From Kiritimatiella glycovorans (GTDB lineage Bacteria > Verrucomicrobiota > Kiritimatiellia > Kiritimatiellales > Kiritimatiellaceae), in contig NZ_CP010904.1 of assembly GCF_001017655.1 (NCBI RefSeq), positions 1,110,001 to 1,142,000 on the forward strand: 32,000 nucleotides of DNA. Reading direction: 5' to 3'. Within the stretch, counting starts at the first letter, position 1, and every line of letters begins with the position of its first letter. The translations under genes were made by a program, and so were the position numbers. Of the stretch, positions 1,101 through 30,744 are shown one piece after another. The notes under the pieces were generated by a model. It made no database searches. It was given only the letters and a program-made list of their open reading frames with translations, and was not told the DNA's origin.

Positions 1101-1135
1101 GAAGGCCCGGTCGATAGCGACCGGGCCTTCTTTAT
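1101..1135 (+). terminator. Rho-independent terminator after the PEP-CTERM gene
   Basis: GAAGGCCCGGTCG-ATAG-CGACCGGGCCTTC forms a perfect 13-bp stem with a 4-nt loop, followed by TTTAT. It begins 19 nt after the stop codon. Confidence 0.75.
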
Positions 1136-1141
1136 GCGGTC

Positions 1142-2066
1142 ATCCGCTGCGAGCGATCCCCTGGAGGGACGGCTTCCACGCCGTCCACAAAAGCGGCGCG
1201 CTCGGAGATCGCGCCCTACCTGAAAACGCGGGCCGACCCTTGCGATGGAATCGGTCGGGGTGGAACCCGACCCTCCACGCCGTCCGTTGTGAGCGATCCC
1301 CTGGAGGGACGGCTTCCACGCCGTCCACAAAAGCGGCGCGCTCGGAGATCGTGCCCTACCTGAAAACGCGGGCCGACCCTTGCGATGGAATCGGTCGGGG
1401 TGGAACCCGACCCTCCACGCCGTCCGTTGTGAGCGATCCCCTGGAGGGACGGCTTCCACGCCGTCCGCAAAAGCGGCGCGCTCGGAGATCGCGCCCTACC
1501 TGAAAACGCGGGCCGACCCTTGCGATGGAATCGGTCGGGGTGGAACCCGACCCTCCACGCCGTCCGCTGCGAGCGATCCCCTGGAGGGACGGCTTCCACG
1601 CCGTCCGCAAAAGCGGCGCGCTCGGAGATCGCGCCCTACCTGAAAACGCGGGCCGACCCTTGCGATGGAATCGGTCGGGGTGGAACCCGACCCTCCACGC
1701 CGTCCGTTGTGAGCGATCCCCTGGAGGGACGGCTTCCACGCCGTCCGCAAAAGCGGCGCGCTCGGAGATCGTGCCCTATCGGAAAACGCGGGCCGACCCT
1801 TGCGATGGAATCGGTCGGGGTGGAACCCGACCCTCCACGCCGTCCGTTGTGAGCGATCCCCTGGAGGGACGGCTTCCACGCCGTCCACAAAAGCGGCGCG
1901 CTCGGAGATCGTGCCCTACCTGAAAACGCGGGCCGACCCTTGCGATGGAATCGGTCGGGGTGGAACCCGACCCTCCACGCCGTCCGCTGCGAGCGATCCC
2001 CTGGAGGGACGGCTTCCACGCCGTCCGCAAAAGCGGCGCGCTCGGAGATCGTGCCCTACCCAGGAA
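1142..2066. repeat. Tandem array A of a 140-bp hairpin-rich unit (about 6.6 copies), BIME/REPIN-like
   Basis: The marker tgcgatggaatc recurs at 1241, 1381, 1521, 1661, 1801 and 1941, an exact 140-bp period. Copies differ only by a few transitions. Each unit contains GGTCGGG-GTGGAA-CCCGACC, GGACGGC-TTCCAC-GCCGTCC and GGCGCG-N9-CG(C/T)GCC. Confidence 0.97.
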
Positions 2067-2095
2067 CGCAGACTGAACCCATAGGTGAAAGGTAG

Positions 2096-2116
2096 GGACG
2101 GCTGTCCCAGCCGTCC
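2096..2116. repeat. Solo hairpin of the same family (long-stem variant)
   Basis: GGACGGCTG-TCC-CAGCCGTCC has a 9-bp stem, preceded by gtagg as at the start of array B. Confidence 0.8.
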
Positions 2117-2298
2117 GCCCGGCCGTGTCCGCCCTGCCGTCCGCGCAGATATCGCGCGCTACCAAAGGCAAAAAACTCCGCAGACCATCACCATAGTACA
2201 AAAAGGCGTCAGCGAAGCGTAGGACATCGCCTCCCCGTATCCGCAAGGATACGCGTCATTCTTATTTCGCTTCTTTTAATTCAACCGGACGAAGAATC

Positions 2299-3570
2299 AT
2301 GTGGATGCACGCGACCATGGATCTCAAGGCGGAGCCGTTTAATGCGGCCGACCGCGCGATGCTTCGCAATCTCGCCCGCCGGGTAGCCGAGATCGCCGCC
2401 CTTCCGATTCAGCGGGAACGCGAAATCCTCTGTACGGCGCACAACGATCTCAAGACGAAACAACCGGTGGTCTTCGCCTTTCCCGAGGGGGCGTGGACGG
2501 AACTTATCCCCCTCTCGTCGCTGCAGGGCACGACCCCCTTCACGCGCCATTTCGAGACAGAACTTCGACGTCGCATCTACTACGACGATCACATTCGCGA
2601 CGATCAGCCGATCCGCCGCGAACTCTACGTCCCGTACGCCGGCCGATTCACCACCTTCGGTCTCGAGATGCGGACCACGGAGAGCACCAGCGAGCGCGGT
2701 TCGCGTCACTTCGATCCGATCATCCGCACCATGGAGGATGTAGAAAAGATGGAGCCGCCGCGGGTCGAGATCGATTGGGACGAGACCCGGCGGCGCGAGG
2801 AGATCGTTCAGGAGGCGCTCGGGGATATTCTCGACGTACAGCTTCAGGGCATGTGGCGGGGAAATTGCATCCCGATCGACGTTTTCGCCATGTACTGCGG
2901 TCTCGACAACCTTTTCTACGACATGCTCGACCAGCCGGAGATGATACACGCTGCGGTCCGGCTCATGGTCGACGGTTGGATCGACTGTGTGAAGGAACTC
3001 GAACGGATCGGCGCCCTGTCACTGGCCCATACGAATCAGTTCTGCGCCTCGGGCGGGATGTCGTATACCGACGATCTTCCGCAGCCGGACTTCGACGGGG
3101 AGCACGTACGGCTCAAAGATCTATGGGGATTCGCCACGGACCAGATCTTTACCGATGTCTCCCCGGCGATGCACGAGGAGTTCGCCATCGAGCACGAAAA
3201 GCGTTTTCTGGAACTGTTCGGACTTAATTCCTACGGCTGCTGCGAGCCGCTGCACAACAAGATCGAAATGCTCGAGCGGCACCTCCCGAATCTGCGCCGG
3301 CTCTCGATTTCCCCCTGGGCCGATGTCGAACAATGCGCCGAGCAGCTTCAGGACCGCTACATCTATTCGTGGAAACCGAACCCCGTGATCCTGGCCGGGG
3401 ACCGCTTCGAGCCCGAGGCCGTGCGTGAGAGTATCCGGGCCTTTCGCGAAAAAACGAGGGATTGTGTTCCGGAGATTATAATGAAGGATACCCATACCGT
3501 CCGCCATGATCCGCGCCGCATTCCCGAATGGGTGCGTATCGCCAAAGAGGTCTGTGAGGAGACGGGATAA
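2299..3570 (+). CDS. Hypothetical enzyme, possibly a distant URO-D-like TIM-barrel protein (function uncertain)
   Basis: A 423-aa ORF with ATG at 2299 (alternative ATGs at 2305 and 2317) and an AT-rich upstream region. Its C-terminal half (SYGCCEPLH, ISPWADVEQ) looks like a remote relative of the URO-D/MtaA fold encoded by the next gene. I cannot confirm this without an HMM search. Confidence 0.6.
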   Translation: MWMHATMDLKAEPFNAADRAMLRNLARRVAEIAALPIQREREILCTAHNDLKTKQPVVFAFPEGAWTELIPLSSLQGTTPFTRHFETELRRRIYYDDHIRDDQPIRRELYVPYAGRFTTFGLEMRTTESTSERGSRHFDPIIRTMEDVEKMEPPRVEIDWDETRRREEIVQEALGDILDVQLQGMWRGNCIPIDVFAMYCGLDNLFYDMLDQPEMIHAAVRLMVDGWIDCVKELERIGALSLAHTNQFCASGGMSYTDDLPQPDFDGEHVRLKDLWGFATDQIFTDVSPAMHEEFAIEHEKRFLELFGLNSYGCCEPLHNKIEMLERHLPNLRRLSISPWADVEQCAEQLQDRYIYSWKPNPVILAGDRFEPEAVRESIRAFREKTRDCVPEIIMKDTHTVRHDPRRIPEWVRIAKEVCEETG

Positions 3571-3613
3571 AGAGCTGTGGGCATGGATTGAAAAAGAAGG
3601 GAGAAGCGGAAGT

Positions 3614-4591
3614 ATGAGTAAACGAGACGACATGATCGCGGCCATGAGCGGACGTCTTCCCGGGCGTGTTCCGCTGTGGGAACTCGAGTTTCAGATGTGG
3701 AATCAGTTCAGTGACGAGAAACTGATCGTCGGAACGCCGTTTACCAAACTGACCGGACGGGAGCAGCAGGAACAGCTCGATCGAAATGCGCGGATCATCT
3801 GCGACGTGAGCGAGCGACTCGATTTCGCGGGGATCACCCTTCCTGCATGGTACTGGGAATCCGCGCCCGGCGAGCCCGCGTATTTCTGGCTGCCCGAGCC
3901 CGACCGCGAGACGCTGCTGCGCAGAATCATCGATATCGCCGGGGACCGTTTCTACTACGTGGTCCACGTCGGCGGCGTGCTGGGTATGCCGCCCTCCGAC
4001 CGGTATATGGAGTTTTCCTGTCAGCTTTTCGAAGATCCGGAATCGATCGACCGCCGCGCGCGGGAAAACTGCGATGAGGCCAGACGCCGGGTCGAACACT
4101 GGGCGCCGTTGGGCGCGGACGGTTTTCTGATGCCCGCCGATCAGGCGATGAACAACGGACCGTTCTATAATCCCGAACAGATGGACCGGTTCATCTATCC
4201 GTATCTGAGGGAGATGGCGGATACGATCCGTCAGGCCGGCGGCCATTCCATCCTGCACACCGACGGCAATGTCATGCCGCTGATGGACGGCTATATGGAA
4301 TGCGGCATCGACGCCATCCAGGCACTGGATCCCATCGCCGGTATGGATCTGGAAAAGGTGAAGGCGAAGACAGGCGACCGCCTTACCCTGTGCGGAAATG
4401 TCGACTGCTGTACGCTGATCTCCGGAACCCCCGGAGACGTGGCGGAACAGACCCGCGAGTGCCTCGCCCGGGGAAAACCCGGGGGCCGGTTTGTGCTCGG
4501 TGCGTCAAACGCCGTCGAGTACTCCGCTCCCGCGGAAAACTTTCAGGCCATGATCGATACCTGGCGCGCCGATCCCGGATACGACGCCTAG
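3614..4591 (+). CDS. Uroporphyrinogen decarboxylase (URO-D) / MtaA-CmuA family protein
   Basis: ATG 3614 is preceded by GAAGGGAG. The ORF-track start at 3506 lies inside the previous gene. The motifs HTDGNVMPLMDGYMECGIDAIQALDP, LCGNVDCCTLISGTPGDV and GGRFVLGASNAV are typical of the C-terminal half of URO-D-like enzymes. Confidence 0.8.
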   Translation: MSKRDDMIAAMSGRLPGRVPLWELEFQMWNQFSDEKLIVGTPFTKLTGREQQEQLDRNARIICDVSERLDFAGITLPAWYWESAPGEPAYFWLPEPDRETLLRRIIDIAGDRFYYVVHVGGVLGMPPSDRYMEFSCQLFEDPESIDRRARENCDEARRRVEHWAPLGADGFLMPADQAMNNGPFYNPEQMDRFIYPYLREMADTIRQAGGHSILHTDGNVMPLMDGYMECGIDAIQALDPIAGMDLEKVKAKTGDRLTLCGNVDCCTLISGTPGDVAEQTRECLARGKPGGRFVLGASNAVEYSAPAENFQAMIDTWRADPGYDA

Positions 4592-4640
4592 CCCTGGAGG
4601 GATGCTGCTGTCCAGCAGCACCGTCCGGAAACGAAAGAGG

Positions 4641-5357
4641 GTAGGGACGGCTTCCACGCCGTCCGTTGTGAGCGATCCCCTGGAGGGACGGCTTCCACGC
4701 CGTCCACAAAAGCGGCGCGCTCGGAGATCGCGCCTTACCCGAAAACGCGGGCCGACCCTTGCGAGGGAACAGGTCGGGGTGGAACCCGACCCTCCACGCC
4801 GTCCGTTGTGAGCGATCCCCTGGAGGGACGGCTTCCACGCCGTCCGCAAAAGCGGCGCGCTCGGAGATCGCGCCCTACCTGAAAACGCGGGCCGACCCTT
4901 GCGAGGGAACAGGTCGGGGTGGAACCCGACCCTCCACGCCGTCCGTTGTGAGCGATCCCCTGGAGGGACGGCTTCCACGCCGTCCACAAAAGCGGCGCGC
5001 TCGGAGATCGCGCCCTGTCTGAAAACGCGGGCCGACCCTTGCGAGGGAATCGGTCGGGGTGGAACCCGACCCTCCACGCCGTCCGTTGTGAGCGATCCCC
5101 TGGAGGGACGGCTTCCACGCCGTCCGCAAAAGCGGCGCGCTCGGAGATCGCGCCCTACCAGAAAAACGCGGGCCGACCCTTGCGAGGGAACAGGTCGGGG
5201 TGGAACCCGACCCTCCACGCCGTCCGTTGTGAGCGATCCCCTGGAGGGACGGCTTCCACGCCGTCCGCAAAAGCGGCGCGCTCGGAGATCGCGCCTTACC
5301 CGAAAACGCGGGCCGACCCTTGCGAGGGAACAGGTCGGGGTGGAACCCGACCCTCCA
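4641..5357. repeat. Tandem array B of the same 140-bp unit (about 5.1 copies), same orientation as array A
   Basis: The marker ttgcgagggaa recurs at 4759, 4899, 5039, 5180 and 5320, a period of 140 with one 141 caused by an extra A. The unit is nearly identical to array A apart from tgcgaGggaaCAggtcgggg versus tgcgaTggaaTCggtcgggg. An extra hairpin GCTGCTG..CAGCAGC (4604-4619) sits between the stop codon and the array. Confidence 0.97.
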
Positions 5358-5452
5358 ATATGAGCGAAAAGATTGTTCGCGTATCTCCAGATCCCCTACA
5401 CTCCCCCAATCCGTTGTATTATGGGTTTATTCAGACAGAAGGGGCTGAGGCG

Positions 5453-7807
5453 ATGTTGCGTTCGATGGTGTTCCCGTTGTTCGGAGTTCAGGTCTTGTGG
5501 GTTGGGATGAGCGCATATGCTGCCGCGGGAGCACTCGAACCCTTCTCGATGGCCGACCCGCTCGGGATCAACGTGGAGGATGTGGCGGCGCTTAATGAAC
5601 TCGGCAATCAGCCGCTGGCACGATTGGGATATGTCGATGTGACCGCTGCGCCGTTCCACGTGGACGGCTCGGGCGAAACGGACGTCACCGTATCGCTCCA
5701 GGAGGCGATCACCTTCGCGCGTCATCATAAAATGGCGGCGTATCTTCCGGCCGGGACGTATCGGGTCAGCGATACGATTCGTTGCTTTGGCGGATGGCGG
5801 GACTACCGCGACGAACAATACCGCTATCTTCCGCACGTCGACTTCTGGCCGTGTGTCGTGGTCGGGGACACGCGCGGTGCGGGACGTCCCCGGATCGTGC
5901 TCGCGGCCAATTCCCCTGATTTCAACAATCCGGCGTTCTTGAAGCCCGTGGTTCAGTTCTTTGCGCGGAGCTGGCGGCGTGATGCCTCGGAAGAGATTCC
6001 GCGCCTCGACGGATCACCCGCATTCAATCAGTTGTTCAAGGGCGTGGACATCGAAATCGAGCCGGGCAATCCGCGTGCGACGGCGTTGTTTATGGATTCG
6101 GCCGAGGGCGCGACGATCCAGGACTGCACGCTGGATGCAGGGGAGGGGTACGCCTGTCTCGAGCGCTGTCCGGGCAGCGGCGGCGCGGTATTTAATGTCG
6201 AGATGCGCGGAGGCCGGGTCGGGGCGGTGATGAACGGGGCGCGTCCGTCCGCCACCCTGGCGGGAGTGCGCTTCCGCGGACAGCGCGAAGCGGCCATCCA
6301 TTACGATCAGCGCGGAGGACTCACCGTGGTCGGATGCACCTTTGATCTCGCGCCCGGAGTGCCCGCCGTCCGCTCGCGCGATACGCGGCACGGCGCGTTG
6401 AGTGTGGTCGACACCCGAATCGCCTTCTCGCAGGCCGATCCGGGGAACGTGGCCTTTGATGCCGGGACGGCGTTTTATCTCCGGGATGTGTATGTGCATC
6501 AGGCGGCAGCGGTCCTGAAGACCGAAGGCGGGCGTGTTCTCGGATCCCCTGAGCACGAATGGGTCCGCGTCGATGAGGCCGCCGTCGGGCATGATAGCTA
6601 CCCGATTCCGATCGATACGCCGATTTATATCGACGGGGAAGAGCGGGGCGCCTTTTGCCGGATGGAGCCCTGTGCGGAGCCGGAGGACGGGTTCGTGCGG
6701 CGTCACATCTTCTGGGACGAGTCGACTGCGCCGGCGTTTGACCGGGCGGGGTATGTAAACGTGAAGGATGCGCCGTATCATGCGCGGGGGGATGGGGAGA
6801 CGGACGACACCGAGGCCCTGCAGCGCGCGATCGACGAACACGAGGTCGTCTTTCTTCCCAAGGGGGCATACCGGATCACGCGTACGCTGCGACTGCGTCC
6901 GGAAACGAAACTCTTCGGCGTGAGTCCCTCGTACAGTCTGATCGTGCCGATGGAGGTCAGCGGCGGCGATTTCATGGACCCCGCTGACCCGCGTCCCGCG
7001 ATTCGCACCGCCGATCGTAAGGATGCCGATACGGTTCTGGAATTCGTGGGGATCTATCTTCCGCGCGAACTGGTTCACGCGGTCTATGCCCTGGATTGGC
7101 GCTGTGGCGGGCGGTCGCGCCTGAGATGCGCCCACCCGCTCTTCGGCTACACCGAGCTCGACTGGGAATTCAAGCGGCAGGACCTTTATCCCTGGGACAA
7201 CTGGTCATGGGAGGATATGGGGGCCATGGCGACGATGCTCGAGCCGGACGGCGTGCGCCATCGTTCCATCCCCGGCTTCGCGCCGGACACCTCGCGGGAT
7301 CGCCGGCGTAACTGGCCGATGCAGCTCGTGCGCGGTCATGGCGGCGGCGCGTGGTACGCGATGTGGGCGAACAGTACATGGGGGCAGGGGGCCCGGTATC
7401 GGCAGCTTCGCGTCGAGGGTATCGACGGTCCGTTCGCGATTTATCACGCCCAGCTTCAATATTCGCGCGGCGAGGCCGAGATCGAGATGGTCGGGGCGCG
7501 AAACGTCTCGATCTACGGGACCAAGAAGGAGATGGATGCCCCCGTCCTCGTGCTGCGCGACTGCGAGAACGTGCTCTACACCGGCAACGGCGGTCCCGGG
7601 ATGTCCGTGGTTCCGGAATGGGGGCACTACCGTATCTTCAATTCGCGCGCGATCACCCTGGCCAACCTGTTCTTCGATCCGCGGCCCGAAGGCGCACACG
7701 GCAGGAGCGAGTCGGTCCCGATCGTGCGGGTGTATGACGGACAGGGCCGCGAGACATTCTGGAGCGAACCCGGGGCACGCCCCGTACTGTTTAAACGTAC
7801 CCCGTAA
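5453..7807 (+). CDS. Secreted double beta-helix glycosidase (pectate-lyase superfamily, GH28/GH55-like)
   Basis: ATG 5453 is preceded by GAGG, and the N-terminus MLRSMVFPLFGVQVLWVGMSAYAAAGA is signal-peptide-like. ATG 5360 is an alternative start. The track start at 5039 is a TTG inside the repeat array and is rejected. There are two Pectate_lyase_3-type N-terminal motifs: YVDVTAAPFHVDGSGETDVTVSLQEAI and YVNVKDAPYHARGDGETDDTEALQRAI. Confidence 0.8.
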   Translation: MLRSMVFPLFGVQVLWVGMSAYAAAGALEPFSMADPLGINVEDVAALNELGNQPLARLGYVDVTAAPFHVDGSGETDVTVSLQEAITFARHHKMAAYLPAGTYRVSDTIRCFGGWRDYRDEQYRYLPHVDFWPCVVVGDTRGAGRPRIVLAANSPDFNNPAFLKPVVQFFARSWRRDASEEIPRLDGSPAFNQLFKGVDIEIEPGNPRATALFMDSAEGATIQDCTLDAGEGYACLERCPGSGGAVFNVEMRGGRVGAVMNGARPSATLAGVRFRGQREAAIHYDQRGGLTVVGCTFDLAPGVPAVRSRDTRHGALSVVDTRIAFSQADPGNVAFDAGTAFYLRDVYVHQAAAVLKTEGGRVLGSPEHEWVRVDEAAVGHDSYPIPIDTPIYIDGEERGAFCRMEPCAEPEDGFVRRHIFWDESTAPAFDRAGYVNVKDAPYHARGDGETDDTEALQRAIDEHEVVFLPKGAYRITRTLRLRPETKLFGVSPSYSLIVPMEVSGGDFMDPADPRPAIRTADRKDADTVLEFVGIYLPRELVHAVYALDWRCGGRSRLRCAHPLFGYTELDWEFKRQDLYPWDNWSWEDMGAMATMLEPDGVRHRSIPGFAPDTSRDRRRNWPMQLVRGHGGGAWYAMWANSTWGQGARYRQLRVEGIDGPFAIYHAQLQYSRGEAEIEMVGARNVSIYGTKKEMDAPVLVLRDCENVLYTGNGGPGMSVVPEWGHYRIFNSRAITLANLFFDPRPEGAHGRSESVPIVRVYDGQGRETFWSEPGARPVLFKRTP

Positions 7808-8017
7808 AGACCGCAAAACGCCGCATGAAAACATCGGAATCGAGACGCCGAGAACGGATTTTGCGGATGACGCGGACCGGGTGGCCCGGGGAGGGTTCTG
7901 GACGCGGGGCCGTTGAACTTCAAGCACGTCAACCTGCAATCACTTCTGCCCCGGCCTGATGCGGGATGCGGGGGTGCCCGGAGATCGCGCCACACCCGAA
8001 CGGGGCGTTTCGTCGGC

Positions 8018-11155: not shown

Positions 11156-11222
11156 GGCAGGGACGGCTCTCCGAGCCGTCCGAAAATGTGAGAGGGCAGG
11201 GACGGATCTCCGAGCCGTCCGC
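11154..11222. repeat. Two direct copies of a long-stem hairpin of the same family
   Basis: gggcagGGACGGCTC-TCC-GAGCCGTCCg (11161-11181, perfect 9-bp stem) is followed 39 nt downstream by gggcagGGACGGATC-TCC-GAGCCGTCCg (one mismatch). The pair fills the gap between the transporter gene and the next gene. Confidence 0.85.
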
Positions 11223-14174: not shown

Positions 14175-14204
14175 GCCGCAATGCATACACGGATACGAAT
14201 CACA

Positions 14205-14472
14205 GGGCCGGCTTCCACGCCGACCGCAAAAGGGACGGGGTGAAACCCGTCCCTCCAGGGAAAATGCGGATGGCGATATGGAGGGTCGGCTTCCACGCCG
14301 ACCGCAAAAGGGACGGGGTGGAACCCGTCCCTCCAGGGAAAATGCGGATGGCGATATGGAGGGCCGGCTTCCACGCCGACCGCAAAAGGGACGGGGTGAA
14401 ACCTGTCTCTCCAGGGAAAATGCGGATGGCGATATGGAGGGTCGGCTTCCACGCCGACCGCAAAAGAGGACG
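14205..14472. repeat. Tandem array C: 78-bp unit (about 3.4 copies) related to the 140-bp family
   Basis: ggcttccacgccgacc recurs at 14210, 14288, 14366 and 14444, a period of 78. The unit contains GGTCGGC-TTCCAC-GCCGACC, a 7-nt spacer, then GGGACGGG-GTG(G/A)AA-CCCGTCCC. The last copy is degenerate. Confidence 0.95.
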
Positions 14473-14485
14473 GAGAGAACGGTAA

Positions 14486-17324: not shown

Positions 17325-17410
17325 TGGTGGTGGGGGAAGGATTCGAACCTTCGAAGGCATGAGCCAACAGATTTACAGTCTGCCCCGTTTGACCGCTTCG
17401 GTACCCCACC
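17325..17410 (-). tRNA. tRNA-Tyr(GTA): tRNA-Tyr (anticodon GTA), CCA encoded
   Basis: Minus-strand sequence GGTGGGGTACCGAAGCGGTCAAACGGGGCAGACTGTAAATCTGTTGGCTCATGCCTTCGAAGGTTCGAATCCTTCCCCCACCACCA. It has a 7-bp acceptor stem GGTGGGG/CCCCACC, an anticodon loop CTGTAAA, a long variable arm and a T-loop GGTTCGAATCC. Confidence 0.95.
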
Positions 17411-17468: not shown

Positions 17469-17534
17469 GGATCAGAATCAGAATCAGAATCAGAGTCAGA
17501 GTGAGAATCAGAGTCAGAGGGAGAGGGAGTGAGA
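17469..17534. repeat. Hexanucleotide microsatellite (GANTCA-type), 11 units
   Basis: ggatca gaatca gaatca gaatca gagtca gagtga gaatca gagtca gaggga gaggga gtgaga. The plus strand is purine-rich and six of the units contain GANTC. Confidence 0.9.
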
Positions 17535-17770
17535 AACCGTGAGACCTGAAACCTGAAGGATGAGTACGGCTTTTTCCGCTGCGCGGACCTGCGGGCCTGC
17601 TACGAGCGTAAGAGAGAACGCACCATTTTTTTGCCTGTGCTCTTCTCATCCATCTTTGCGCTTCCAGTAGTTCCACAAAAATCTACGAAGAGCCCGGAAT
17701 TGCGAGTTTGCTGGCGTCGACCCCCGATATCTTTGCCTCTTACTCAAGTCTCAGGTTTCAGGTTTCTCAC
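17529..17770. mobile_element. MITE-like 242-bp segment bounded by 20-nt inverted repeats (speculative)
   Basis: The left end is gtgagaaacc[gtgagacc]tgaaacctga (17529-17556). The right end is tcaggtttcaggtttctcac (17751-17770), which is the exact reverse complement of the left end once the 8-nt internal duplication is removed. The interior has no ORF and carries the 36-nt motif also found at 24496. Confidence 0.35.
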
Positions 17771-22988: not shown

Positions 22989-23068
22989 GGACGGCGTGGC
23001 AGCCGTCCCTCCCGAGTCGATATCCGACGCATTTTCGGGCACTGGGAGGGTCGGGTGCCACCCCGACC
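22989..23068. repeat. Solo inverted hairpin pair (REPIN-like) of the same family
   Basis: GGACGGC-GTGGCA-GCCGTCC (22989-23008) and GGTCGGG-TGCCAC-CCCGACC (23049-23068). The loops are reverse complements. The 40-nt spacer is itself bounded by CTCCCGAG / CTGGGAG. Confidence 0.85.
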
Positions 23069-24276: not shown

Positions 24277-24421
24277 CTCACGCCTCCTCGACGTTTAATT
24301 ATGCGTTCTCTGGTCACCTTTATAGTCGAAATCCGGATCGAAATCGAAAGGGAAATCGTTACCCGCCATGAAGGACATGAAGAGCATGAAGGTTGGTTCG
24401 GGGGGGGAGAAGGACGACAAA

Positions 24422-24631
24422 CGTTCGTAGTAGCGCCGCAAGCGCCCGAAGGGCCAAGGCGCGTGAAGATAACGGCCCTGGCCCTGCTTCGCAGGCCTGC
24501 GGGCCTACTACGAGCGTAAGAGAGAACGCACGATCTCTTCTCATTCCTCTTTGCGATCCCGGCGCCTTTGCGAGAGTCATGTCGATCGTTCGTAGTAGCG
24601 CCGCGAGCGCCCGAAGGGCCAAGGCGCGTGA
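24422..24631. repeat. 45-nt direct repeats flanking a conserved intergenic motif
   Basis: cgttcgtagtagcgccgc(a/g)agcgcccgaagggccaaggcgcgtga occurs at 24422-24466 and 24587-24631 (44/45 identical). Between them lies the 36-nt motif at 24496-24531, whose ctactacg core is complementary to the cgtagtag of the repeats. Confidence 0.9.
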
Positions 24632-24732: not shown

Positions 24733-25908
24733 TCATGATCCAGCCCCCGGCAGTTCGGTACCCTCATTGAGAATCGTGATGTAGTCAACGTAACTGAAGA
24801 CCCGATCGCGCTTGCGGCCCGTGATCTCGCTCGCCAGACCCATTTCGCAGAGCCGATCCAGTGTCTTGTTCACCGTGACGTGACTCAGCCCGGTTTCGGC
24901 TTCAATGGCCCGCGAGGTCGTTAGGGGGCGACGCAGTAGCTCGTGATGTACCCGCAGTGCGGACCCTGCCGCCCGGCCCAGCGCCTGGATCCGGTCGCGA
25001 TCCCGACCGGCCATGGTTTCCAGGCGCTGCACGGTGTCCACTGCCTGGCCGGCGGTGGTTGTCACGGCCTCAGCAAAGAACTCCAGCCATGCCTCCCAGT
25101 CGCCGTCACTACGAACCCGGTTCAGCAGGTCGTAGTAGGTGCCGCGATGGGTCTTGAAAAAGAGACTGAGGTACAGCATCGGTTCACGAAGTACCCCCCG
25201 CTCGCACAGCAGCAATGCCACCATAAGCCGGCCCAGGCGTCCGTTGCCGTCAAGGAACGGGTGAATAGTCTCGAACTGAACATGGGCGAGAGCTGCCTTG
25301 AGCAATGGTGGTGTCGGCTCGGGTTCATCATGCAGAAACAACTCGAGCGCGCCCATGCACTCCATGACCCGCTCAGGAGGCGGTGGCACAAAGACGGCGT
25401 TACCGGGGCGCGTCCCGCCAATCCAGTTCTGGCTCCGCCGGAACTCGCCGGGGGTTTTGCCGCTGCCCCGCCCATGCGCGAGCAGGCGCTTGTGAATGTC
25501 CCGGAGCAATCGCAGCGACATGGGGAAGTCGCCGCGAATACGCTTGAGACCATAGCCCATCGCCGACACGTAGTTGCTGACTTCCTGTACGTCGTCGAGC
25601 GGGACGCCCGGCTCTTCCTCCAGCTCGAAAAGCAGCAGGTCTGACAGGGAAGACCGGGTGCCTTCGATCATCGAAGAGAGCACCGCCTCTTTGCGTACGC
25701 AGGTATAGAGGAACAAGGAGACGTCGGGCAGAAACGTCGTCACGCTGTCCAGGCGGCCCAGGGCAAGAAGTGCCTCATCAAAGCGGGCCCGAAGCCCGGC
25801 CGTCCAGTCGACAGGCGGAGAGGGAGGCAATGGAGCCGGAACAAACGCCCGCACCTTCTCTCCGGCTGTGGATACGGCCTCGTATTTCCCTTGTAGCGAT
25901 CGTTTCAT
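24733..25908 (-). CDS. Fic family protein (AMPylase-type, with N-terminal inhibitory motif and C-terminal wHTH)
   Basis: Fic core HPFLDGNGRLGR. The upstream SSMIEG matches the (S/T)xxxE(G/N) auto-inhibition motif. The first ATG is at 25908 (MKRSLQGKYE); the track start at 25935 is a TTG. Confidence 0.9.
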   Translation of the reverse strand: MKRSLQGKYEAVSTAGEKVRAFVPAPLPPSPPVDWTAGLRARFDEALLALGRLDSVTTFLPDVSLFLYTCVRKEAVLSSMIEGTRSSLSDLLLFELEEEPGVPLDDVQEVSNYVSAMGYGLKRIRGDFPMSLRLLRDIHKRLLAHGRGSGKTPGEFRRSQNWIGGTRPGNAVFVPPPPERVMECMGALELFLHDEPEPTPPLLKAALAHVQFETIHPFLDGNGRLGRLMVALLLCERGVLREPMLYLSLFFKTHRGTYYDLLNRVRSDGDWEAWLEFFAEAVTTTAGQAVDTVQRLETMAGRDRDRIQALGRAAGSALRVHHELLRRPLTTSRAIEAETGLSHVTVNKTLDRLCEMGLASEITGRKRDRVFSYVDYITILNEGTELPGAGS

Positions 25909-26222
25909 GGTTGCCTTACATAGCACACGACGCAATGTAACTTTTCGGCGCGAACGCTACATTCTTCCGTGCGGCATGTCAACTTGAGATTCATGGGATG
26001 CGGAGACTGGAGAAGGAATGGCGGGAATGCTGAGCGGAAGTGGCTACGGATGCAAGCACTCAGAACCCCAGGATGTCAAGGCACCACTCATGTCTGGTTT
26101 TTTTTCGCCATCGAGTGTGCAACGCACTGCACAGCAGTGTCTTAAGGAATGGAGTGGTCAAATGATATGGCCGGATATGGCCACTTGTTTGGCCACATTC
26201 TGGCCGTACGCGAGGCAGCTCG

Positions 26223-28734: not shown

Positions 28735-30744
28735 ATGAACGTGAGGGGGGGTAATGCGGCGCAACACACCCCTGGCTGTATCGACAGGGCCTTCTACGCC
28801 GACTCGATTTCCGGGTTTCTGGATAAAAGTATGGATACGATTCTCGGCGCGTTGTCCGTCGGGAATTTGACCCAAGAGCAGATCAACGCATGGCGTGGTC
28901 AGGTCGACATCCTCAAGAGTTCACTGTCTGCGCGACCGGGCGGCGTCTTCTTTGAATACGCGATACCCCGAATGGGGAAACGCATTGACACCGTGCTAGT
29001 CATCGGAGGCGTGATCTTTGTCATAGAGTTTAAGGTGGGGTCGACGGCATTTCATGCGGCCGACATCGACCAGGTCTGGGATTACGCGCTGGATCTGAAG
29101 AATTTCCACGAAACAAGCCACGATTGCTATGTCGTTCCGGTTCTGGTTGCGACGGACGCAAAGGGTCCGACTCCTAGCCCCGCGATCAAAGCTGATGATG
29201 ATAGATTGCTGCGCCCCGTGAAAAGCAACGCCTCGTCGCTCAAGGACATCCTTGCGTCGATTACGGTCTCGTTGGAGTCGGACGTCATTACCCCCTCTCA
29301 TTGGGAACAGGGGCGGTATTGTCCCACTCCCACGATCGTTGAGGCAGCCTTGGCACTGTATAAGGGGCATTCGGTTGCCGAGATATCTCGCAGCGATGCT
29401 GGCGCACAGAACCTGCACGAGACCACAGATGCCATCTCACGTGTCATCACGGCCGCAAAAGCTGGCTCTTTCAAAGCGATCTGCTTTGTAACGGGCGTGC
29501 CGGGCGCCGGGAAGACGCTCATCGGTCTAAACATCGCCACCAAGCACCTGAAGAGTTCAGAGGATACGTACAGCGTATTTCTATCCGGCAACGGTCCACT
29601 CGTGAAGGTGCTTCAGGAAGCGCTTGCGCGTGATCGCATCGCCCGTGCTGCAGGCAGGGGCAAAAGGTTGCGCAAAGGGAATGCCTTGAGCGAGGTGAAG
29701 ATGTTCGTTCAGAACGTCCACCATTACCGGGATGCCTACCTTCAGGATCCGGCTGCCCCTGTGGATCATGTGGCTCTTTTCGACGAGGCACAACGCGCCT
29801 GGGACCTGAGCCAGACCGCGAAATTCATGAAGCAAAAGAAAAACATCCCCGACTTTGACCGATCGGAGCCTGAGTTCCTGATATCGTGCATGGATAGGCA
29901 CCAGGACTGGGGCGTGATTGTCTGCCTTGTCGGTGGCGGGCAGGAGATTCACACGGGAGAAGCCGGCATCGGGGAGTGGATTGACGCTCTGCAGCGGTCG
30001 TACCCCGATTGGCGTATCTACATCTCGGATCGGCTCACGGATAGCGAATACGCAGCAGGCCACGCACTCGATACGCTGGCAGATCGCCCGAACGTCGTCC
30101 ACACGCCGGAGTTGCACCTCGGTGTTTCGATGCGCTCTTTCCGTGCGGAAAACGTCTCGCTGCTGGTGAAGCAGATTCTTGACCTCGATGCAGATGGCGC
30201 TCGGGAAACGCTTGCGGCGATCGCCGATAAGTATCCCATCGTCATTACGCGTGATCTTAACAAGGCCAAGCGCTGGGTAAGTTCACATGCACGTGGATCA
30301 GAACGATATGGCTTGGTCGTGTCCTCTCACGCGGAACGCCTGAAACCACATGCGATTGATGTCCGGTCGCCGATGAACCCGATTCACTGGTTTCTGGCAG
30401 GAAAGGATGATGTTCGGTCCTCCTACTACCTGGAAGATGTGGCCACGGAGTTCCATATTCAGGGTTTAGAGCTCGACTGGGCGTGTGTCACGTGGGACGG
30501 GGACTTCAGGCGATCGGAAAATGGCTGGGCGCACCACTCATTCCGAGGAAATCGGTGGGAGCGAATCCGGAAAGAAGACCGGAAGAGGTACCAGAAGAAC
30601 GCTTACCGTGTTCTTCTCACCCGCGCGCGTCAGGGGATGGCGATTGTGGTCCCGCATGGCGATCCTGAGGACCCGACAAGGCGTCCGGAATTCTACGATC
30701 CGACATATGAGTATCTGCGTGATATTGGGTTCAGGGTGATTTGA
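28735..30744 (+). CDS. DUF2075-type protein: N-terminal PD-(D/E)xK-like nuclease domain fused to a P-loop helicase-like NTPase
   Basis: The N-terminus [10 protein letters not shown]...[20 protein letters not shown] shows a D...ExK pattern. Walker A is [13 protein letters not shown] and Walker B is [10 protein letters not shown]. The C-terminal [12 protein letters not shown] is typical of SF1-like and DUF2075 proteins. The start at 28735 is uncertain (GTG at 28741 is an alternative). Confidence 0.78.

Follow-up and report, generated by a model that had tools for sequence, protein, structure and literature searches.

In a 32,000-nucleotide (nt) stretch of the Kiritimatiella glycovorans chromosome (contig NZ_CP010904.1, positions 1,110,001 to 1,142,000; hereafter, the window, with position 1 as its first letter), we found three tandem arrays built from pairs of inverted hairpins that share one short palindrome. 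These arrays are very probably clusters of repetitive extragenic palindromes (REPs) resembling the bacterial interspersed mosaic elements (BIMEs) of Escherichia coli, and they belong to a family tagged by (T)GGAG at the foot of the hairpin. An earlier note on this DNA had described the first array and proposed for it the logic of REP doublets and BIMEs. The dispersal of the hairpin, the covariation of its stem and the fact that it flanks genes for REP-associated tyrosine transposases (RAYTs) in other genomes all bear out that proposal.

RESULTS

Three arrays of inverted hairpin pairs

We detected the arrays with Tandem Repeats Finder on the whole window, together with unit alignment and direct reading of the sequence. 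Array 1 (1143-2060) has a period of 140 bp and 6.6 copies, with 97% matches and 0% indels, which agrees with the exact periodicity and the lack of unique spacers noted before. Array 2 (4653-5357) comprises 5 units of 140/141 bp in the same orientation, with about 95% identity to array 1. In array 3 (14204-14473), the same program reported a 78-bp period and 3.4 copies, and here the hairpins of array 1 are joined by different linkers. All three arrays are noncoding and intergenic. A degenerate 20-nt hairpin pattern gave 32 matches in the window, compared to 0.00 expected from shuffled sequences. Because the K. glycovorans genome was closed with PacBio and Illumina reads (PMC5148204), the arrays are unlikely to be assembly artifacts.

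Every unit of array 1 contains the two hairpins already recognized in the earlier note, H1 (GGTCGGG-GTGGAA-CCCGACC, e.g., 1253-1272) and H2 (GGACGGC-TTCCAC-GCCGTCC, e.g., 1307-1326). Their loops are reverse complements, H1 being the H2 element read from the opposite strand. Also found as described were the third stem (GGCGCG-N9-CG(C/T)GCC, 1335-1355) and the half-copies upstream of both hairpins (Table 1). In the units of arrays 1 and 2, the tags of the two hairpins face each other over a 26-nt spacer, and the hairpin bodies face each other over a 66-nt linker that holds the third hairpin. In the 78-bp unit of array 3, only GCAAAAG (7 nt) separates the bodies. This heptamer also stands after H2 in 4 of the 7 units of array 1, and ACAAAAG in the remaining 3, indicating that the two unit types are related. 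Like a BIME, arrays 1 and 2 thus consist of alternating GGACGGC(+) and GGTCGGG(-) REPs, 6.6 and 5 times, with 66-nt and 26-nt linkers, while GGTCGGC(+) and GGACGGG(-) alternate 3.4 times in array 3. When the 12 units making up arrays 1 and 2 were aligned, about 11 sites varied; all were in linkers, and the 24 REP copies were invariant. Besides arrays 2 and 3, the features added here to those of the earlier note are an isolated inverted pair, the GGAG tag and the related hairpins at 2091-2118 and 11156-11222.

A 24-nt tagged palindrome with a covarying stem

The elementary module is 24 nt long and consists of the tag (T)GGAG, a 7-bp G+C-rich stem (GGWCGGS) and the 6-nt loop TTCCAC, i.e., it is a short palindrome with a compensated stem, as is typical of REPs. 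GGAG stands on one side of every array hairpin, and H1 and H2 represent one tagged element in opposite orientations, distinguished by two compensated differences in the stem. All four combinations of A or T at stem position 3 and C or G at position 7 occur among the REPs of the window, each with the matching partner base. Both REP types of K. glycovorans also have a T before the tag. The exceptions to the tag in the window are GTAG or GCAG, at 4641, 2091 and 11156.

We scanned one genome per species with the pattern GGAGGGWCGGSTTCCACSCCGWCC, in which pairing is not required at the W and S positions, and counted matches in 8-kb blocks. The W and S stem pairs were both complementary in 153 of the 154 matches listed. 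We also collected, with no pairing filter, every GGAG-N7-TTCCAC-N7 in all the sequence examined (n = 252). The 7-bp stem was perfect in 217 of these unselected copies and had one mismatch in 18, and more than 20 distinct stems were present. Among 53 distinct sequences, 84.9% of the stem positions paired (61.3% in shuffles), and 81 positions were changed on both sides (29.7 in shuffles). The resulting covariation score was 0.545, compared to 0.17 in shuffles, none of which reached that value in 500 trials, and slid controls gave at most 0.113.

Dispersal and extragenic bias

The pattern GGAGGGWCGGSTTCCACSCCGWCC was found in at least 120 blocks from at least 47 assemblies, with at least 21 blocks in a single assembly. 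These assemblies are labeled as Kiritimatiellia, Verrucomicrobiota/Opitutaceae/Pelagicoccus, Victivallales/Lentisphaerae and Sumerlaeia, as well as Thermodesulfobacteriota/Deltaproteobacteria, Phycisphaerales/Thermogutta, Eisenbacteria and Anaerolineales. Within the window, hairpins occupy five separate intergenic sites. The same bias holds more generally, since the longest stop-free span over a hairpin had a median of 531 nt, compared to 1374 nt at random positions (p = 2e-25), and spans of at least 900 nt covered about 26% of the hairpins but 73% of the random positions. In other genomes, the hairpin commonly forms short tandem arrays with a period of 27-81 bp. When the whole window was compared by blastn with the fetched loci, the matches to the arrays were confined to the hairpin parts, indicating that the linkers are specific to the K. 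glycovorans genome.

RAYT genes adjoin the palindrome in other genomes

As a lure for RAYT genes we used an E. coli RAYT sequence, which served solely as a tblastn query. It picked open reading frames (ORFs) adjoining hairpins in five loci, L065, L038, L050, L033 and L029. The first four match the NCBIfam model NF047646 ("REP-associated tyrosine transposase") with E values of 1e-20 to 1e-24 and scores at or near the curated cutoff, and the L029 protein was assigned via alignment instead of being scored with this model. Pfam Y1_Tnp matches these ORFs weakly. In these blocks, which had been selected by the hairpin, hairpins lie within about 100 nt of, or inside, all five RAYT genes. Aligned with each other, the five proteins show 46-57% identity to the L065 RAYT and share the HUH motif PDHIHLF (PGHLHLF in L029) and the Tyr motif KW.YV..N.VR, with both histidines and the tyrosine invariant. 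The L065 gene (4944-5441) has REPs on either side, at 4897 and 5544, and none inside. The other four carry in-frame REP copies between the HuH and Tyr motifs.

In a reverse test, 80 metagenomic loci were chosen by homology to this RAYT clade and searched for perfect tagged hairpins with GG...CC stems at most 350 nt from the gene. Such hairpins were present at 54 of the 80 loci, and the tag was GGAG in 174 of 177. Usually the gene has such hairpins on either side, in two stem types of opposite orientation. Tandem repetition is frequent, at a spacing of 85 to 150 nt (L122, about 150 nt; L125, 125; L132, 89; L189, about 92; L151, about 96). The 140-bp unit of K. glycovorans, which the earlier note had regarded as unusually long, thus falls within the spacing of inverted REP pairs adjoining RAYTs of this clade. 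When hairpins were not selected by tag, GGAG still stood on one side in about 90% of them, and T preceded the tag in 83%. Across the RAYT loci, stems and loops vary and the tag is constant. Furthermore, RAYTs adjoining TTCCAC-loop REPs are mutual nearest relatives (mean identity of 59% within the group, compared to 52% outside), which is the pattern expected if enzyme and REP coevolve.

Some further observations were made at these loci. The in-frame REPs, from one to several per gene in RAYTs of the TTCCAC-REP subclade, share one location, between WKSxVxR and WQRDFWD, and encode peptides such as DGVEPVPPGG and GGTGSTPS. In L038, a reverse transcriptase gene (4181-5419; RVT_1, E value of 8e-18) lies directly downstream of the RAYT gene and is itself interrupted in frame by a REP-encoded peptide ahead of the conserved LPIGNLLSQ segment. 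In L010, from the Kiritimatiellaeota metagenome-assembled genome (MAG) JACNKZ01, a 967-aa PriA ORF (2696-5599) has its 3'-DNA-binding domain and helicase core separated by an inserted Y1_Tnp/HUH domain (PF01797, 26.9 bits, aa 238-327) that contains a PNHIH motif. To our knowledge, no such PriA-Y1_Tnp fusion has been described.

Predicted folding and strand signals

Folded as RNA, two units of array 1 gave z scores of -2.2 (plus strand) and -2.9 (minus strand), which are modest because the region is very G+C rich. In the predicted minimum-energy fold of the plus strand, H1 and H2 pair with each other over the full length, their tags and loops included, to form a long imperfect hairpin of -39.4 kcal/mol. 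The small hairpins are predicted at -14.0 (H1) and -13.0 (H2) kcal/mol, i.e., about -27 together. Similarly, a single long hairpin of -37.4 kcal/mol is predicted for the compact array 3 dimer. In these models, both long hairpins have the geometry of a REPIN, a REP doublet forming a hairpin.

Since each 5' arm has a second complementary partner upstream, mutually exclusive folds had been suggested in the earlier note. Computed with RNA parameters, this second partner is slightly stronger than the hairpin for H2 (-15.5 versus -13.0 kcal/mol) but weaker for H1 (-10.3 versus -14.0 kcal/mol). The second partners look like half-REP remnants, and the dominant alternative fold is the one between H1 and H2 rather than those with the half-copies.

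The C/T variant of the linker stem affects one site in four units of one array. As had been noticed, it retains pairing only on the plus strand, where the G-U pair costs 1.9 kcal/mol, compared to 5.4 kcal/mol on the minus strand (-8.8 versus -5.3 kcal/mol). The RNA-level structure that this had seemed to hint at did not find support. Among one-mismatch REP copies from all genomes, G.T and A.C were equally frequent on the tagged strand (4 each of 15 informative copies), and a T-to-C change in array 3 leaves a wobble on the minus strand only.

Several other identities were rejected. No Rfam family accounts for the arrays: in a scan of the window at gathering scores (Rfam 15), only two tRNAs reached the threshold, and a permissive scan (E ≤ 1) of 1083-2298, around array 1, returned chance-level matches only. 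The hairpins are not intrinsic terminators, as no T tract follows H1, H2 or the third stem and a terminator scan had no site inside the arrays. A scan for sigma-70 promoters found none there either. The repetition of the whole 140-bp unit at 97% identity leaves no unique spacers, as would be found in a CRISPR array, and the window contains no cas genes. Finally, the earlier statement that array 1 is noncoding holds: 140 is not a multiple of 3, stops occur in every frame within three units, and no ORF extends beyond about 2.9 units, the longest having 132 aa.

These data also bear on the possibility that the arrays function mainly as RNA elements of the polysaccharide-utilization cluster in which they lie, being transcribed together with the adjoining plus-strand genes and acting as 3'-exonuclease barriers, RNase processing sites or attenuators that tune the relative expression of neighboring genes. 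An effect of REPs on mRNA stability is known from malE-malF in E. coli. For other bacteria, transcription of REPs and an influence on mRNA stability have been reported (PMC3733652). The position of all three arrays between co-oriented plus-strand genes, the predicted stability of the hairpins and the plus-strand G-U pair of the linker variant would fit such a role. However, every unit has the element on both strands and hence no preferred orientation with respect to transcription, and the tagged strand lacks the G.T bias. A terminator-like hairpin precedes array 1, no credible Rfam match or T tract was found, and in other genomes the element also occurs inside coding regions and around transposase genes. 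We therefore regard this explanation as unlikely. A role in RNA would be at most a secondary effect of the REP cluster and not an alternative identity for it.

Origin of the K. glycovorans copies

In vitro, the E. coli TnpA-REP protein binds, cleaves and recombines REP/BIME single strands (PMC3333891, PMC8266576). By analogy with this enzyme, the folded single-stranded REP of the GGAG family, together with its tag, would be recognized, cut and rejoined by a RAYT, i.e., a Y1/HUH tyrosine transposase. An inverted REP pair with its linkers would then have been amplified head to tail, giving the 140-bp arrays at two sites and the 78-bp array at a third. Models leading from an inverted pair with linkers to a head-to-tail array have been published for BIMEs (PMC3333891). 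The amplification may have proceeded through RAYT cleavage and strand transfer, as in the BIME amplification model (Ton-Hoang 2011), or through unequal recombination or slippage, and unequal recombination between units would lead to an identical array. The neighboring genes could be affected if, as with E. coli REPs, the upstream mRNA were shielded from 3' exonucleases.

A number of observations weigh against the assignment to a REP family mobilized by RAYTs. The described REP superfamilies are defined by a GTAG or GTGG tag, whereas the tag here is GGAG. Searches of the window for a RAYT, by tblastn with 85 RAYTs and with NCBIfam models on the unannotated ORFs, gave none, and no protein of the 2.95-Mb K. 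glycovorans chromosome was among the best 120 matches of two RAYT protein searches, which used a profile and a trimmed Kiritimatiellae RAYT, respectively. At 26 of the 80 RAYT loci no hairpin passed the strict filter, many of these loci being short contigs. Lastly, the phylum labels of the other genomes are those of MAG annotations alone. The cognate RAYT of K. glycovorans may be divergent or lost; some strains of E. coli are reported to have lost tnpA-REP and retained their REPs (PMC3333891). In its main text, the K. glycovorans genome paper refers to 75 transposase genes and does not mention REPs (PMC5148204), and Kiritimatiella is not mentioned in two text supplements of Quentin et al. 2018 (PMC6006769).

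The absence of a RAYT from the window and from the matches listed, and the documented retention of REPs after its loss, could also be accommodated if the arrays were ordinary minisatellites that arose by local slippage or unequal crossing-over, with incidental hairpins that are orphan REPs left behind by a lost RAYT. The 97% identity of the units is indeed expected of a recent local amplification. Nevertheless, the hairpin module is independent of the 140-bp unit, since it also occurs in the 78-bp array, in the isolated pair and in at least 47 assemblies. Its presence with other linkers and periods indicates that the hairpins are primary and the array secondary. Moreover, slippage as the amplification step is equally compatible with a REP cluster, and we consider a plain minisatellite rather improbable. 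That the arrays are platforms for a host DNA-binding protein (gyrase, integration host factor [IHF] or another nucleoid protein, in the way suggested for E. coli BIMEs), kept for chromosome structure, is the least probable explanation: the 24 REP copies of arrays 1 and 2 are indeed invariant while the linkers vary, but no protein partner can be inferred from the sequence, the linkers are not conserved between genomes (blastn matches hairpin regions only), and copy number and period vary freely among loci.

Flanking genes and other features of the window

All three arrays are flanked on either side by co-oriented genes on the plus strand that belong to a cluster of the glycan-utilization type (Table 1). 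The hairpin at 1105-1137, recognized by eye, is absent from the output of a consensus terminator scan. With about 95% identity, arrays 1 and 2 form direct repeats on either side of the two genes at 2299-4591, making this 2.6-kb segment prone to deletion or duplication via homologous recombination. The base composition of the segment between them is unremarkable.

Both partners of the isolated pair at 22989-23068 have the loop variant TGCCAC, which fits loop-loop pairing in a long hairpin or copying from partner to partner. At 7971-8000, a solitary stretch of 30 nt is 83% identical to the linker segment with the third hairpin (CGGAGATCGCGCC...ACCCGAA), suggesting that part of the linker may itself be a dispersed element. 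Two further repeat families, one of 54 nt (17578-17631 and 24486-24539) and one of 60 nt (24407-24466 and 24572-24631), each with 87% identity between copies, contain G+C-rich palindromes adjoining CTAC/GTAG and are probably other REP types of K. glycovorans. Elsewhere in the window, an ATCAGA x 8 microsatellite (17471-17518) adjoins a tRNA gene (17328-17410). A 669-aa protein with a Schlafen group 3-like DNA/RNA helicase domain (28735-30744; E value of 2e-81) is encoded near a Fic/DOC protein (24733-25935). These two genes are possible defense or toxin genes with no relation to the arrays.

Table 1. Features of the window and RAYT genes with in-frame REPs in other genomes
Feature	Position	Strand	Details
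Terminator-like hairpin of the upstream PEP-CTERM gene	1105..1137	+	GGCCCGGTCG-ATAG-CGACCGGGCC, then T-rich tail TTCTTTAT; inferred by eye
Array 1	1143..2060	both	Per unit: REP(+) H2, linker with third hairpin, REP(-) H1, 26-nt spacer
H2-type REP	1163..1186	+	GGAG-GGACGGC-TTCCAC-GCCGTCC; copies start at 1163, 1303, 1443, 1583, 1723, 1863, 2003
Linker hairpin	1195..1215	+	GGCGCGC-TCGGAGA-TCG(C/T)GCC; one per unit, starts 1195, 1335 ... 2035; T variant in 4/7 units
H1-type REP	1253..1276	-	GGAG-GGTCGGG-TTCCAC-CCCGACC (minus strand); copies at 1253, 1393, 1533, 1673, 1813, 1953 (each +23)
Half-copies upstream of H1 and H2	1233-1238; 1279-1285		CCGACC (H1); GCCGTCC (H2); read from the sequence
Related hairpin	2091..2118	+	GTAG tag, GGACGGC stem, loop TGTCCCA
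Array 2	4641..5357	both	Includes a solitary GTAG-tagged H2 copy at 4641-4664
Two direct hairpins	11156..11222	+	GCAG-GGACGG(C/A)-TCTCCGA-GCCGTCC, 39 nt apart; between MFS (major facilitator superfamily) transporter gene and next gene
Array 3	14202..14473	both	REP(+) GGAG-GG(T/C)CGGC-TTCCAC-GCCGACC, spacer GCAAAAG, REP(-) with stem GGACGGG
Isolated inverted REP pair	22989..23068	both	Tags facing, 32-nt spacer, loop TGCCAC in both partners
Genes around array 1	21-1082; 2299-3570; 3506-4591	+	PEP-CTERM protein; (array 1); 423-aa protein; URO-D-like protein
Genes after array 2		+	Pectate-lyase-like protein, sulfatase, MFS transporter, (two REPs), second pectate-lyase-like protein, 581-aa protein
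Gene after array 3		+	GH127 (glycoside hydrolase family 127) protein
RAYT gene, L038	3404-4162		In-frame REPs
RAYT gene, L050	3335-4051		In-frame REPs
RAYT gene, L033	3666-4601		In-frame REPs
RAYT gene, L029	1481-2194	-	In-frame REPs
RAYT gene, L170	2272-2859		In-frame REPs

DISCUSSION

According to our analysis, the repeats that stand out in the only long-standing cultured Kiritimatiella are very probably of the REP/BIME type, with a 24-nt module and a tag that are defined here. The GGAG-tagged family is large, and the distinct RAYT clade to which it is linked is common in bacteria of the Planctomycetes-Verrucomicrobia-Chlamydiae (PVC) group as well as in metagenomes from soil and sediment. 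Surveys that look for REPs by a GTAG or GTGG tag would overlook this family. With regard to annotation, the ORFs called over the arrays are spurious, and the arrays are likely hot spots of recombination and copy number change within a polysaccharide-utilization gene cluster. The finding does not open a new kind of biology.

A bolder reading is that the GGAG-tagged TTCCAC-loop REP and its RAYT subclade have spread across phyla by horizontal transfer (Kiritimatiellota, Verrucomicrobiota, Lentisphaerota, Sumerlaeota, Desulfobacterota, Chloroflexota and Planctomycetota), the K. glycovorans arrays perhaps being orphans without a cognate RAYT. In line with this, the 24-nt REP is near-invariant while the transposases diverge to 55-72% identity. 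We put this forward only tentatively and with considerable doubt. If true, it would contradict the view of REPIN-RAYT systems as essentially vertically inherited, and it would mean that a new REP superfamily had been overlooked by surveys requiring GTAG/GTGG.

Compared with known systems, the K. glycovorans arrays come close to the BIMEs of E. coli, in particular BIME-2, which are also intergenic and in which two REP subtypes, Y and Z, alternate with conserved linkers in a variable number of head-to-tail copies. A BIME would also be expected to bind IHF, DNA gyrase or DNA polymerase I (Pol I). The E. coli REPtron also has a tetranucleotide tag at the foot of the hairpin and a Y1/HUH gene flanked by REPs, a situation seen here in the related genomes. 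However, E. coli BIMEs carry the tag GTAG and long bulged stems instead of (T)GGAG, a perfect 7-bp stem and a 6-nt loop, they lack the extra linker hairpin of the K. glycovorans unit, and the motifs of the RAYT clade described here (DHIH / WQ / YVxxNP) differ from those of E. coli TnpA-REP.

The REPINs of Pseudomonas (Bertels and Rainey 2011, PMC3116915) likewise consist of inverted REPs with a short spacer, are predicted to form a long imperfect hairpin and have a RAYT that covaries with the REP type. In contrast to them, the partners in K. glycovorans differ at 4 of 24 positions, making a heterodimer, and the pairs have been amplified into long tandem arrays. REPIN-RAYT systems are moreover described as mainly vertically inherited, whereas the REP described here is common to several phyla.

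The GTAG-tagged REPs, including SMAG, surveyed by Di Nocera et al. 2013 (PMC3733652) resemble our element in several respects. They are tagged stem-loops of 20-40 nt whose stems measure 6-9 bp. Besides clusters, they form dimers, head-head or tail-tail, over spacers of 20-100 bp, and they lie preferentially between co-directional genes, with some intragenic copies. In that study, tagged REPs were found in eight phyla, the PVC group among them, with intragenic copies most numerous in the verrucomicrobium Opitutus terrae, and REP arrays flanked exopolysaccharide genes in Thauera. The tag variants that it lists (GYAG, GYRG, GTRG, GTMG and GTGG) do not include GGAG.

The TnpA-Y1 subclass 2.4, or RAYT group 4, of Quentin et al. 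2018 (PMC6006769) shares with the present clade the in-frame REPs between the HuH and Tyr motifs, the "double-foot" symmetry of the inverted dimers and a scattered phyletic distribution. Its signature is NH[IFV]H / WQ / YIxNNP, compared to DHIH / WQ / YVxxNP here, the two having been compared by motif only. CRISPR arrays also contain regularly spaced short palindromic repeats, but with unique spacers, and the repeats here alternate in orientation. Overall, every feature of the K. glycovorans arrays has a precedent except for the GGAG tag: this string is absent from the texts of PMC3733652 and PMC6006769, whose searches required GTAG/GTGG or close variants, and the phyletic breadth of one near-invariant 24-mer seems not to have been noted previously.

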